Part shown: in pieces, positions 27,099 through 31,879 of the stretch | Layout: each line of letters begins with the position of its first letter | How positions within the stretch are numbered: the stretch's first letter is position 1 | From: Mobula hypostoma | Taxonomy: Eukaryota | NCBI RefSeq assembly: GCF_963921235.1 | Contig: NC_086097.1 | Coordinates: forward strand, 91,514,001 to 91,578,000 | DNA: 64,000 nucleotides | Reading direction: 5' to 3' | Made by a program: the position numbers and the translations under genes | The notes under the pieces: model-generated | The model's database searches: none | What the model was told of the DNA's origin: nothing | Seen by the model: the letters and a program-made list of their open reading frames with translations, nothing else

Positions 27099-29405
27099 TC
27101 ACCGCACCTTGTCCCCATTCCAACCTCACTCCTTCGGAACGCTCTGCTCTCCACTCACTCCGCACTAATCCTAACATTATTATTAAACCCGCTGATAAAG
27201 GGGGTGCTGTTGTAGTCTGGCGTACTGACCTCTACCTTGCCGAGGCACAGCGACAACTCGCGGATACCTCCTCTTATTTACCCCTCGATCGTGACCCCAC
27301 TAAGGAGCACCAGGCCATTGTCTCCCACACTATCAACGACTTTATCCGCTCAGGGGATCTCCCATCCACTGCTACCAACCTTATAGTTCCCACACCCCGC
27401 ACTTCCCGTTTCTACCTCCTACCCAAGATCCACAAACCTGCCTGTCCTGGCCGACCTATTGTCTCAGCTTGCTCCTGCCCCACCGAACTCGTTTCTGCAT
27501 ACCTCGACACTGTTTTATCACCCCTTGTTCAATCCCTTCCGACCTATGTTCATGACACTTCTCACGCTCTTAAACTTTTCGATGATTTTAAGTTCCCTGG
27601 CCCCCACCGCTTTATTTTCACCATGGATGTCCAGTCCTTATATACTTCCATCCCCCATCAGGAAGGTCTCAAAGCTCTACGCTTCTTTTTGGATTCCAGA
27701 CCTAATCAGTTCCCCTCTACCACCACTCTGCTCCGTCTAGCGGAATTAGTCCTTACTCTTAATAATTTCTCCTTTTGCTCCTCCCATTTCCTCCAAACTA
27801 AAGGTGTAGCTATGGGCACCCGTATGGGTCCTAGCTATGCCTGCCTTTTTGTTGGGTTTGTGGAACAATCTATGTTCCGTGCCTATTCTGGTATCTGTCC
27901 CCCACTTTTCCTTCGCTACATCGACGACTGCATTGGCGCTGCTTCCTGCACGCATGCAGAACTCGTTGACTTTATTAACTTTGCCTCCAACTTTCACCCT
28001 GCCCTCAAGTTTACCTGGTCCATTTCCGACACCTCCCTCCCCTTTCTAGATCTTTCTGTCTCTGTCTCTGGAGAAAGCTTATCCATTGATGTCTACTATA
28101 AGCCTACTGACTCTCACAGCTATCTGGACTATTCCTCTTCTCACCCTGCCTCTTGCAAAAACGCCATCCCCTTCTCGCAATTCCTCCGTCTCCGTCGCAT
28201 CTGCTCTCAGGATGAGGCTTTTCATTCTAGGACGAGGGAGATGTCTTCATTTTTTAAAGAAAGGGGCTTCCCTTCCTCCACTATCAACTCTGCTCTTAAA
28301 CGCATCTCCCCCATTTCACGTACATCTGCTCTCACTCCATCCTCCCACCACCCCACTAGGAATAGGGTTCCCCTGGTCCTCACCTACCACCCCACCAGCC
28401 TCCGGGTCCAACATATTATTCTCCGTAACTTCCGCCACCTCCAACGGGATCCCACCACTAAGCACATCTTTCCCTCCCCCCCTCTCTCTGCATTCCGCAG
28501 AGATCGCTCCCTACACAACTCCCTTGTCCATTCGTCCCCCCCATCCCTCCCCACTGATCTCCCTCCTGGCACTTATCTGTGCAAGCGGAACAAGTGCTAC
28601 ACATGCCCTTACACTTCCTCCCTTACCACCATTCAGGGCCCCAAACAGTCCTTCCAGGTGAGGCATCACTTCACCTGTGAGTCGACTGGGGTGATATACT
28701 GCGTCCGGTGCTCCCGATGTGGCCTTTTATATATTGGTGAGACCCGACGCAGACTGGGAGACCGCTTTGCTGAACATCTACGCTCTGTCCGCCAGAGAAA
28801 GCAGGATCTCCCAGTGGCCACACATTTTAATTCCACATCCCATTCCCATTCTGACATGTCTATCCACGGCCTCCTCTACTGTAAAGATGAAGCCACACTC
28901 AGGTTGGAGGAACAACACCTTATATTCCGTCTGGGTAGCCTCCAACCTGATGGCATGAACATTGACTTCTCTAACTTCCGCTAGGCCCCACCTCCCCCTC
29001 GTACCCCATCTGTTACTCATTTTTATGCACACATTCTTTCTCTCACTCTCCTTTTTCTCCCTCTGTCCCTCTGAATATACCTCTTGCCCATCCTCTGGGT
29101 CACCCCCCCCCATCTTTCTTCCCGGACCTCCTGTCCCATGATCCTCTCGTATCCCCTTTTGCCTATCACCTGTCCAGCTCTCGGCTCTATCCCTCCCTCT
29201 CCTGTCTTCTCCTATCATTTTGCATCTCCCCCTCCCCCTCCAGCTTTCAAATCCCTTACTCACTCTTCCTTCAGTTAGTCCTGACGAAGGGTCTTGGCCT
29301 GAAACGTCGACTGCGCCTGTTCCTATAGATGCTGCTTGGCCTGCTGCGTTCACCAGCAACTTTGATGTGTGTTGCTTGAATTTCCAGCATCTGCAGAATT
29401 CCTGT
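27099..29405 (+). mobile_element. Penelope-like element (Neptune type), 5'-truncated, ORF uninterrupted
   Basis: Stop-free frame 27101-28984 (IIKPADKGGAVVV, FYLLPKIHK, GRPIVS, MDVQSLYTSIP, GVAMGT, LRYIDD, CKRNKCYTC, VIYC..C..C..LYIGET GIY-YIG). 14-bp TSD TGTATTCTTACTCT at 27085-27098 and 29406-29419. Confidence 0.95.
29276..29313 (+). ncRNA. Minimal type I hammerhead ribozyme in Penelope 3' region
   Basis: tagtc-CTGACGA-agggtcttggcct-GAAAC-GTC-gactg: complete core, helix I agtc/gact, short helix II, loopless palindromic helix III (ACGT); predicted cut after C29308. Confidence 0.85.
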
Positions 29406-29627
29406 TGTATTCTTACTCTCTTCATTTACCTTAATTCAATGTCTCAAACTCACCTGTTTTCTTGTTCTACATCCTGTCCTCAATCCTGAAATCCTATAGC
29501 CTTACTTGTCCTGCACTTCAAGGAAAATTGTTTCTATCTATCCATCTATTTCAAATAAATCCTTGAACTTTTATAATAAAGAAGTAATACATAATCTGAA
29601 CAATCTACACTTTAAGCCACTACTAAC

Positions 29628-29884
29628 CTCTGTTGCATAACCAAATATCGCAAATCCAAGCAGCCCTTGACTGTGACACCATAATCACGGAGCAACCGGC
29701 AGCCATCTTCAAAGGCGTTAACACCAACCTTCAGTATATTGACATCACCCAGCACATGTAGTAAGGTCTTTGGCAACAAAGAACTATTCCTGGTCATCTG
29801 GGGCATGCGGATGAGAAGGCAGGAGCCACTATAGGAGGCAATCTGAAGGAGAGACACAGGGTTTGCCTTCCCCTTCACAGAAAC
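29628..29884 (-). CDS. EXD2: EXD2 second coding exon (257 nt)
   Basis: Acceptor tgttttccAG, donor GAG|GTTAGT; VSVKGKANPVSLLQIASYSGSCLLIRM...LPKTLLHVLGDVNILKVGV...GCLDLRYL, a WRN-like 3'-5' exonuclease segment; in frame with the previous exon. Confidence 0.94.
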
Positions 29885-30290
29885 CTGGAAAACATTTTAC
29901 AGATAGAGGAAATAAAATATGTCAAGGATTCCAGAATTAAACTCAAAGTTTAAAGCAATCAAGAGAAAAATCAGGTAAACAATATCTGCAGAAAAGGGTG
30001 TGCTTGACTGGCCAAGTTCTTCCAGTATTTCTAGTTTTGATTCAGATTCTGGTATCTGCAGTTTTGTTTGTTTTTCAAGAGAAAAACCAGCTAAGCTTAG
30101 CTCAGTCTTCAACACAATCAGATCAACATATTCAACATTCATCATGAAACACATAATTTCCAAAATATATCACAACTTGCATTCACATTTTGTAGTGAAC
30201 TTTCACAATGCACCTGGTAAATGAGTGGGCCAGCAGGAAGCAGCTTGCAACAAGTCACCACGCTCTGGTGCCATATTGTTATCCACTTCA

Positions 30291-31879
30291 CTCACAACAC
30301 GCTGCAGGAACTCAGCAGGTCGGGCAGCATCCGTGGAAACGAACAGTCGACGTTTCGGGCCGGAACCCTTCGTCAGGACTGTAGAGTGAAGGGGCAGAGG
30401 CCCTATAAAGAAGGTGGGGGGAGGGTGGGAAGGAGAAGGCTGGTAGGTTCCAGGTGAAAAACCAGTAAGGGGAAAGATAAAGGGGTGGGGTAGGGGAAGC
30501 AGGGAGGTGATAGGCAGGAAAGGTGAAGAAGGAATAGGGGAAAACACAATGGGTAGTAGAAGGAGGCGGAACCATGAGGGAGGTGATGGGCAGCTGGGGG
30601 AGGGGGCAGAGTGAATCTGGGATAGAGGAAGGGAGGGGAAGGGAATCACCAGAAGCTGGAGAATTCTATGTTCATACCAAGGGGCTGGAGACTGCCTAGA
30701 CCGTATATGAGGTGTTGCTCCTCCAACCTGAGTTTAGCCTCATCATGGCAGTAGAGGAGGCCATGTATGGACATATCTGAATGGGAGTGGGAAGCAGAGT
30801 TGAAGTGGGTGGCTACTGGGAGATCCTGTCTGTTGTGGCAGACGGAGCGGAGGTGCTCGATGAAGCGGTCCCCCAATCTGCGTCAGGTTTCATCGATGTA
30901 GAGGAGGCCACACCAGGAGCACCGGATGCAACAGATGACCCCAACAGACTCACAAGTGAATTGTTGCCTCACCTGGAAGGACTGTTTGGGGCCCTGAATG
31001 GTGGCAAGAGAGGAGGTGTAGGGACAGGTGTAGCACTTGCGCTTACAGGGATAAGTGCCAGGTGGGAGATCCGTGGGGAGGGACGTGTGGATCAGGGAGT
31101 CGTGGAGGGACCGATCCCTGTGGAAAGCAGAGAGGGGCGGAGAGGGAAAGATGTACTTAGTGGTGGGGTCCTGTTGAAGGTGGCAGAAGTTGTGGAGGAT
31201 AATGTGCTGGATCCGGAGGCTGGTGGGGTGGTAGGTAAGGACAAGGGGAACTCTGTCCCTATTGTGGTGATGGGAGGATGGGGTGAGGGCCGAAGTGCAG
31301 GAAATGGAGCAGATGCGGGTGAGGGCATCATTGATGACAGCAGAAGGGAAACCACGATCCTGAAAGAAAGAGAACATTTGAGATGTCCTGGAACGGAAAA
31401 CCTCATCCTCGGAGCAGATGCGGCGGAGACGGAGGAACTGGGAATAGGGAATGGCATTTTTGCATGTGGCGGGGTGGGCAGAGGTATAGTTGAGGTAGTT
31501 ATGAGAGTCAGTGGGCTTGTAGAAGATGTCAGTGGATAGTCTGTCTCCAGAGATGGAGACCGAGAGATCGAGAAAGGGGAGAGAAGTGTCCGAGATAGAC
31601 CAAGTGAATTTGAGGGCTGGGTGGAAGTTAGAAGTCAATGAAATTGATGAGCTCAGCATGGGTGCAGGAAGCAGCACCAATATAGTCATCAATGTAGCGA
31701 AGGAAAAGTTGGGGAGCGGTACCAGAATAGGATTGGAGCACAGACTGTTCCACATAGCCAATGAAGTGGCAGGCATAGCTGGGGCCCATGCGAGTTCCCA
31801 TAGCTACACCCTTAGTCTGAAGAAAGTGGGAAGAGCCAAAAGAGAAGTTATTGAGTGTGAGAACCAGTTCCGCCAAAGT
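30291..31879 (-). mobile_element. Penelope-like element (Neptune type), 5'-truncated, frameshifted
   Basis: GVAMGTRMGPSYA, LRYIDD, VICCIRCSWCGLLYIDET motifs with a frameshift and a stop. Perfect 15-bp TSD TTGTTATCCACTTCA at 30276-30290 and 31880-31894. Confidence 0.95.
30343..30382 (-). ncRNA. Minimal type I hammerhead ribozyme, sense in EXD2 pre-mRNA
   Basis: Minus strand acagtc-CTGACGA-a-ggg-ttccgg-ccc-GAAAC-GTC-gactgt: 6-bp helix I, 3-bp helix II, intact core; predicted cut between 30349 and 30348. Confidence 0.88.

Follow-up and report, generated by a model that had tools for sequence, protein, structure and literature searches.

Pairs of inverted Alu or MIR elements are reported to promote back-splicing and exon skipping (PMC7371899, PMC13019944, PMC13019027), and this control of splicing by inverted repeats is documented for mammalian short interspersed elements (PMC8516420, PMC13019027, PMC13019944, PMC7371899). 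At TBXT, a lineage-specific Alu is described on the other side of an exon from an older inverted copy, with a predicted stem-loop (PMC10901737). Inverted pairs are reported to be enriched at skippable exons, with 11 of 11 pre-selected candidates validated, and many inverted Alu pairs to flank constitutive exons, folding energy barely separating these from skipped ones (d = -0.12) (PMC13019027); circular RNAs (circRNAs) around young elements are reported to arise as by-products of splicing (PMC8516420). Mobulid genomes are put at over 60% repeats (bioRxiv 10.64898/2026.10.27.761883), and therefore the same physics should act in them through long interspersed elements (LINEs) and Penelope-like elements (PLEs). 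In the window analyzed here, a 64,000-nt stretch of the Mobula hypostoma genome (contig NC_086097.1, positions 91,514,001 to 91,578,000), a coding exon of the EXD2 gene (exon c2) lies between two inverted PLEs, E1 and E2. The elements were inserted separately, their transcribed arms are predicted to pair around c2, and c2 is included in the RNA-like contigs of both organisms compared; the arrangement is probably a chance pair with, at most, low-level splicing or editing by-products.

The layout is like that of TBXT in that a later insertion (E1) faces an older inverted copy (E2) across a single exon, but the arms are Penelope-like, 1.2 kb long and 78% identical instead of 0.3-kb Alus, skipping would give an early stop, and no skipped isoform or phenotype has been shown at EXD2. 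The TBXT exon 6 pair is reportedly AluY/AluSx1. With the Alu and MIR pairs at circRNAs or skipped exons, the locus shares inverted copies near an exon, long introns and a young, species-specific partner; it differs in its non-mammalian host and its Penelope-like family, and no back-splice read was seen in the data, which are contigs only. As elements, E1 and E2 show nothing unusual relative to endonuclease-positive (EN+) PLEs of the Neptune or Nematis type, which are described as having a reverse transcriptase (RT) and GIY-YIG frame, a CX2-5CxxC linker, a minimal hammerhead motif in the terminal repeat, and 5' truncation (PMC8557442, PMC4209133). Among the titles and abstract openings searched, which leave most subscription journals uncovered, there was no PLE pair driving back-splicing, no circle of fish EXD2, and nothing of use on circRNA of cartilaginous fish, on thresholds for editing or on how abundant Penelope elements are.

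EXD2 is transcribed from the minus strand, and the M. hypostoma EXD2 protein P0002 is reproduced by four coding exons, numbered c1 to c4 for this analysis:

38446..38824, minus strand: coding exon c1, upstream splice partner of c2 (ATG at 38790, coding 38790-38446), from protein alignment and contigs
29628..29884, minus strand: coding exon c2, 257 nt, residues 116-201 of the nuclease domain
12514..12640, minus strand: coding exon c3, 127 nt, downstream splice partner of c2
7245..7576, minus strand: coding exon c4, 332 nt, used in the contig-length check below

Exon c2 (29884-29628) has AG/GT ends and a single open frame; its translation matches the nuclease domain of human EXD2 (6k17, E 1.8e-26) and is 100% identical to P0002 over 86 amino acids, as c3 and c4 are over their own lengths. 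The flanking introns measure 8.6 kb upstream and 17.0 kb downstream. An earlier note on this stretch had named the exon, its neighbouring donor (38446) and its neighbouring acceptor (12640) correctly, and its statement that skipping of c2 would shift the frame agrees with the computed product, which stops at codon 118, well ahead of the later junctions. Stop codons so placed mark an mRNA for nonsense-mediated decay (NMD), of which the c2-skipped mRNA is a likely target. Open reading frames in the predicted c2 circle reach at most 62 amino acids. At the end of c1 there are two GTGAGT donors 8 nt apart (window 38454 and 38446, minus strand); use of the upstream one shifts the frame to a stop after 130 amino acids, and the skate-like protein P0235 has a matching end. 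This unproductive choice at c1 may be old and independent of both elements. A CpG-rich stretch at 44500-46000, with an observed/expected CpG ratio of up to 0.89, is a possible EXD2 promoter.

The two elements and their target site duplications (TSDs) are as follows:

27085..27098, plus strand: left TSD of E1, 14 nt, the last 2 nt possibly microhomology with the truncated element
27099..29405, plus strand: E1, a 5'-truncated EN+ PLE, antisense to EXD2, its RT and GIY-YIG frame open to a stop at 28984
29406..29419, plus strand: right TSD of E1, present as a single copy in X7 record 16 (described below)
30276..30290, plus strand: exon-side TSD of E2, 15 nt
30291..31879, minus strand: E2, a 5'-truncated PLE of another subfamily, sense to EXD2, with one frameshift and one in-frame stop
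31880..31894, plus strand: outer TSD of E2, 15 nt

Each TSD pair (27085-27098 = 29406-29419; 30276-30290 = 31880-31894) is the sole exact repeat of at least 10 nt between its searched flanks, and the chance of a 14-mer match is roughly estimated at about 1e-3. The gaps between element and exon are 222 nt for E1 (29406-29627) and 406 nt for E2 (29885-30290), in keeping with the earlier description of independent insertions with distinct 14- and 15-bp TSDs that point tail to tail, about 220 and 400 bp from the exon. The E1 frame matches RVT_1 (E 2e-5) and GIY-YIG (E 5e-4) in Pfam, both under the curated cut-offs, and the other five of six frames searched, among them all E2 frames and exon c2, have no Pfam match. 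The E1 frame carries the motifs DKG, YIDD and GVIY..YIGET and has 1,844 homologues; the E2 protein is 79% identical to it in amino acids, its reading frame being disrupted by a 5-nt deletion and the in-frame stop. RT is followed by a C-terminal GIY-YIG domain in one frame, as in EN+ PLEs, and inspection without a reference alignment finds a CCHH endonuclease motif in both copies (the Cys pair of GIY-YIG and two downstream His). A zinc-finger-like linker is present as CX4CxxC at E1 residues 494-502 and as CX3CxxC in E2; a CX2-5CxxC linker is reported for Neptune and Nematis and is described as absent from Penelope and Poseidon (PMC8557442). Judged by these sequence features, E1 and E2 belong to Neptune or Nematis, so of the earlier assignment to Neptune the linker fits, and the clade is narrowed to one of these two. 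The 5' end is missing from E1, as other copies extend upstream of 27097 among the 24 loose ends listed of 4,622; neither copy has a 5' pseudo-long terminal repeat (pseudo-LTR), because both are 5'-truncated.

The order of insertion can be read from contigs. Four of 24 runs were compared with the window, all as contigs: X7 (DNA) and X1 (RNA-like) from organism A, and X13 (DNA) and X9 (RNA-like) from organism B, the one like the window. The RNA label of X1 and X9 is a guess backed only by their spliced contigs, the libraries being off record, and assembled contigs drop rare forms. X13 has zero differing letters in eight of the eight pieces listed and may be the source of the window, and X7 has 74 differing letters over about 4.6 kb of the pieces listed (approximately 1.6% divergence). 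X7 record 16, a 906-nt contig, joins 26806-27084 directly to 29406-30030 with one copy of the TSD and is an empty E1 site in organism A, seen in this single contig at a depth of 5.5. X7 record 17 enters E2 by 24 nt and so contains the exon-side E2 junction in organism A. X13 records 8-10 match exactly across the exon-side junction of E2 and the two junctions of E1, reaching only 21-27 nt into the elements, below the 31-letter rule. Because organism A has E2 together with an empty E1 site, E2 is common to both organisms and E1 is later or still segregating. The insertions were separate and sequential, E2 being the older and E1 the young one, a difference in age that adds to the earlier description.

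The sequences predicted to pair in EXD2 pre-mRNA are these:

27740..28978, plus strand: duplex arm 1 (in E1), transcribed antisense in EXD2 pre-mRNA
30652..31873, minus strand: duplex arm 2 (in E2), aligned to arm 1

Over 1,239 columns, arms 27740-28978 and 31873-30652 share 78.2% identity, matching the approximately 1.2 kb of shared homology in the earlier note, and a second, inner pair (29277-29351/30380-30308) is 78.7% identical over 75 columns, by which the paired region reaches into the 3' repeats, again an addition to the earlier description. The 1,239 columns consist of 1,222 aligned columns (969 Watson-Crick pairs, 80 G-U pairs, 92 A-C mismatches and 81 other mismatches) and 17 gaps, with longest unbroken runs of 40 nt, or 50 nt with G-U. 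The arms differ at 47 of 408 first, 35 of 407 second and 171 of 407 third codon positions; on account of the third-position excess, E1 and E2 represent two long-separated subfamilies and not the decay of one event. The predicted energy of the duplex is -1726 kcal/mol versus -301.5 and -383.2 for the single arms, and six of six 200-column windows of the alignment are better than shuffled partners by more than 100 kcal/mol. Folding of 27700-31900 gives 1,261 pairs between E2 and E1, the innermost being 30306:29354, and places exon c2 with both its splice sites within a 951-nt loop; the predicted energy is -2312 for the filled allele versus -1064 for an equally long empty-site control. These folds are equilibrium predictions that ignore co-transcriptional splicing. 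Within them, a long duplex looping out c2 is strongly favoured, as the earlier note had proposed, and the outcome that it named as damaging to its own proposal, arms too divergent to pair, is rejected in silico by duplex energy, pairing counts and shuffle comparison. The predicted duplex is physically plausible, and no consequence of it was observed.

Exon c2 is included in both of the two RNA-like runs compared. In X1 record 3 (depth 17.4, organism A) c1 is followed directly by c2 and then by a further 462 nt; in X9 record 25 (depth 11.6, organism B) c2 is preceded by 87 nt, covering 38491, and followed by 543 nt. The tails lie outside the stretch compared, and their identity as c3 plus c4 is inferred from length: 462 is 127+332+3, the exit of P0001, and 543 is 127+332+84, the exit of P0002 from the main path. 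If the tails are rightly identified, the contigs end at annotated alternative splices, not at the edges of c2, so that c2 belongs to the main path whether or not E1 is present. Three aligned M. hypostoma isoforms (P0109, P0106, P0002), found through a search based on c2, all retain the exon. In a search based on c1, none of 21 candidate proteins of 63-202 amino acids ends at the stop predicted for skipping. Two proteins were considered as skip products and rejected: P0235, which at 117 amino acids has the expected length, retains c2 by way of the donor 8 nt upstream, and P0248 is an unrelated C-terminal fragment. Among the 15 joints listed of 883 there is no back-splice or skip joint, which carries no weight because even the normal c1-c2 joint is absent there. 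With respect to editing, T>C places on the plus strand number six in X9, nine in X1, five in X13 and 16 in X7, the arms being swamped by other copies; the two arm places among the letters listed (40 of 133), at 28195 and 31537, also occur in DNA. Of the earlier interpretation, duplex and frameshift stand in silico, and an effect on splicing is so far unsupported, c2 being on the main path in the X9 and X1 contigs; the comparison that it suggested, with a relative lacking one insertion, is provided by organism A, which has E2 and an empty E1 site and includes c2 as well.

The 3' repeats of both E1 and E2 contain a minimal hammerhead motif, the motif expected of a pseudo-LTR:

29277..29312, plus strand: minimal hammerhead-like motif of E1, antisense to EXD2, with G-U in place of G-C at 10.1-11.1
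30343..30382, minus strand: minimal hammerhead motif of E2, sense in EXD2 pre-mRNA, predicted cut at 30349/30348

By inspection the E2 motif is complete, with the core, a bulged base 9/10.1, G10.1-C11.1, a palindromic 15.2-16.2 and a helix I of 6 bp, and its predicted cut lies 464 nt upstream of the c2 acceptor. In the predicted folds it is buried by pairing to E1 in the filled allele and folds on itself in the empty-site control. Monomer folds of the hammerheads are no better than shuffles (z -0.9 to 0.4), Rfam gives no match at gathering score, ARAGORN found nothing, and the 12 hammerhead pattern matches in the window include no second sense copy of the E2-type architecture.

Further Penelope sequences occur in the window. 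Next to the CpG-rich stretch are a third 3' fragment at 44351-44794 (plus strand), which is decayed, has a degenerate hammerhead and lacks a clear TSD, and a fourth match at 46257-46307 (plus strand), which is short and resembles a 3' end. Many DNA contigs link the 3' end of E1 (29372-29408) to sequence matching 36523 onward, which suggests another short PLE tail fragment near window 36520. The summed depth of the E1 family over 28400-29400 in the RNA-like runs, up to 1.1e5 and 2.1e5 versus 7-11 in the exon bin, stems from other copies and is no measure of expression. Two NCBI isoforms, P0117 (named DIPK1C, from Hypanus) and P0135 (named chitinase domain-containing protein 1, from M. hypostoma), match the PLE frame at 78-87%; these matches are exonised elements or annotation errors.

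Inverted repeats are common around EXD2 exons. All four coding exons in the window are bracketed by them, with 7 to 17 matches each (n=24 inverted matches in the window), and 59% of window positions lie within an inverted pair of at least 200 nt with a loop below 20 kb. Summed DNA contig depth is 2e5 to 4e6 in the arms versus 8 to 26 in unique bins. On the assumptions of 200,000 exons, a PLE end every 15-60 kb, and long copies making up a quarter of the total (a fraction taken from the contig depth gradient), long tail-to-tail copies would flank 20-350 exons per genome within 5 kb. By this rough arithmetic, chance alone would be expected to yield such a pair where repeats are this common, and the pair of E1 and E2 is in the tail of the chance distribution, not outside it. 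Another inverted pair (965-1774 and 18998-19815; 90.5% identical, 818 nt, LINE-type RT) brackets c3 and c4 with a loop of 17.2 kb; these exons total 459 nt, so joint skipping would stay in frame. A third copy of that repeat, 88.7% alike, is at 48514-49463, and a decayed LINE with endonuclease- and RT-like frames (33400-36100, minus strand) shares the upstream intron with E2.

The arrangement would be explained by two unrelated retrotransposition events through which c2 came to be flanked by members of two abundant Penelope-like subfamilies, first E2 and later, in one lineage, E1. If the upstream intron is still attached as the polymerase passes E1, about 2 kb beyond c2, the arms would pair into an imperfect duplex about 1.2 kb long, leaving both splice sites in the 951-nt loop; the probable outputs would be A-to-I editing in the arms and traces of a 257-nt circle or of a skipped mRNA lost to NMD. 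Most mRNA would keep c2, and the arrangement would be under no selection. The duplex may form in cells and give low-level by-products, and a chance pair with such by-products at most is the favoured account. Several points weigh against it. E1 and E2 are by far the tightest inverted pair in the window, the only 2.6% of positions in an inverted pair of at least 200 nt with a loop below 5 kb being E1/E2 itself, and with the assumed inputs given above only 0.2-3.5 exons per genome are expected to have long tail-to-tail copies within 500 nt. Contigs are a blunt test, that of X9 being unbroken at an alternative acceptor annotated for P0106; the sample code of X9 differs from that of the DNA run, and the X9 animal may lack E1; the depths are only 11.6 and 17.4 under an RNA label that is a guess; and no by-product (circle, skip or edit) was observed, in contigs that are insensitive to rare forms. 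The last point would also suit an inert pair, in which the 8.6-kb upstream intron is removed by splicing, or protein covers the arms, before the antisense copy in E1 is made, and no duplex forms. Co-transcriptional splicing, if fast, would remove the upstream intron early, and with it E2, because E2 lies wholly upstream of the c2 acceptor; the arms also carry 173 non-pairing mismatches and 17 gap columns. This is a real though lesser possibility, as the predicted duplex is very stable, both introns around c2 are long and the negative data insensitive, runs of 30-40 complementary nt are enough for back-splicing according to work cited in PMC7371899, and the same paper reports that ciRS-7 is driven by old MIR pairs.

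It is unlikely that E1 made a lineage-specific switch of EXD2 as at TBXT, in which the 1.2-kb duplex would send an appreciable fraction of transcripts into a circle or into a skipped form bound for NMD, with sizeable skipping of c2 in some tissue, the codon-118 stop, decay, a lower EXD2 dose in the lineage, and masking of the sense hammerhead. The arms are tight and long, the layout of a young and an ancestral inverted copy is the one described for TBXT (PMC10901737), gain of an inverted Alu pair is reportedly associated with altered inclusion across primates (PMC13019944), and NMD would conceal a skipped form in steady-state RNA; but organism B has c2 on the main path, the three aligned isoforms keep it (though retrieved through c2), the single match among the 21 candidates uses another donor and keeps it too, there is no sign of selection, and E1 is missing from a relative about 1.6% divergent. 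More improbable still is an effect of the ribozyme, whereby the sense hammerhead of E2 would occasionally be cut after pairing in trans with Penelope transcripts, which are abundant, so that the intron before c2 is broken; the later insertion of E1 would mask the motif by pairing across it. The E2 motif has every minimal hammerhead feature listed for such elements (PMC4209133), its predicted pairing changes between the filled and empty alleles, and the Penelope family is heavily represented in the RNA-like runs; against this, single minimal hammerheads are reported not to cleave in vitro and dimers to cleave little (PMC4209133), an Anolis element is reported to have no reads that start or end at the hammerhead cut site (PMC11167929), the window has no second sense copy and no Rfam match, and organism A, with the motif unmasked, still includes c2. 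The locus can scarcely be the outcome of one composite Penelope insertion, of an inversion or of faulty assembly. PLEs are reported often to insert as complex tandem or inverted arrays (PMC8557442), but a composite insertion is rejected by the separate TSD pairs, the 22% divergence of the arms and the empty E1 site in a relative that has E2; c2 keeps the orientation of the gene, and three element junctions are present in exact contigs of X13, although these extend only 21-27 nt inward and X13 may be the source of the window.

On present evidence the locus looks ordinary, an ordinary by-product of a repeat-rich genome; it is of use as a natural experiment and does not demonstrate a mechanism. 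If the pair is without effect, it adds to the constitutive exons that lie within a strong predicted duplex. If the switch is true, it would be a TBXT-like event outside mammals, brought about by ribozyme-bearing Penelope elements and with a close relative as the control. Either way the locus offers a clean comparison, in which the same exon has E2 in both organisms and E1 in one.

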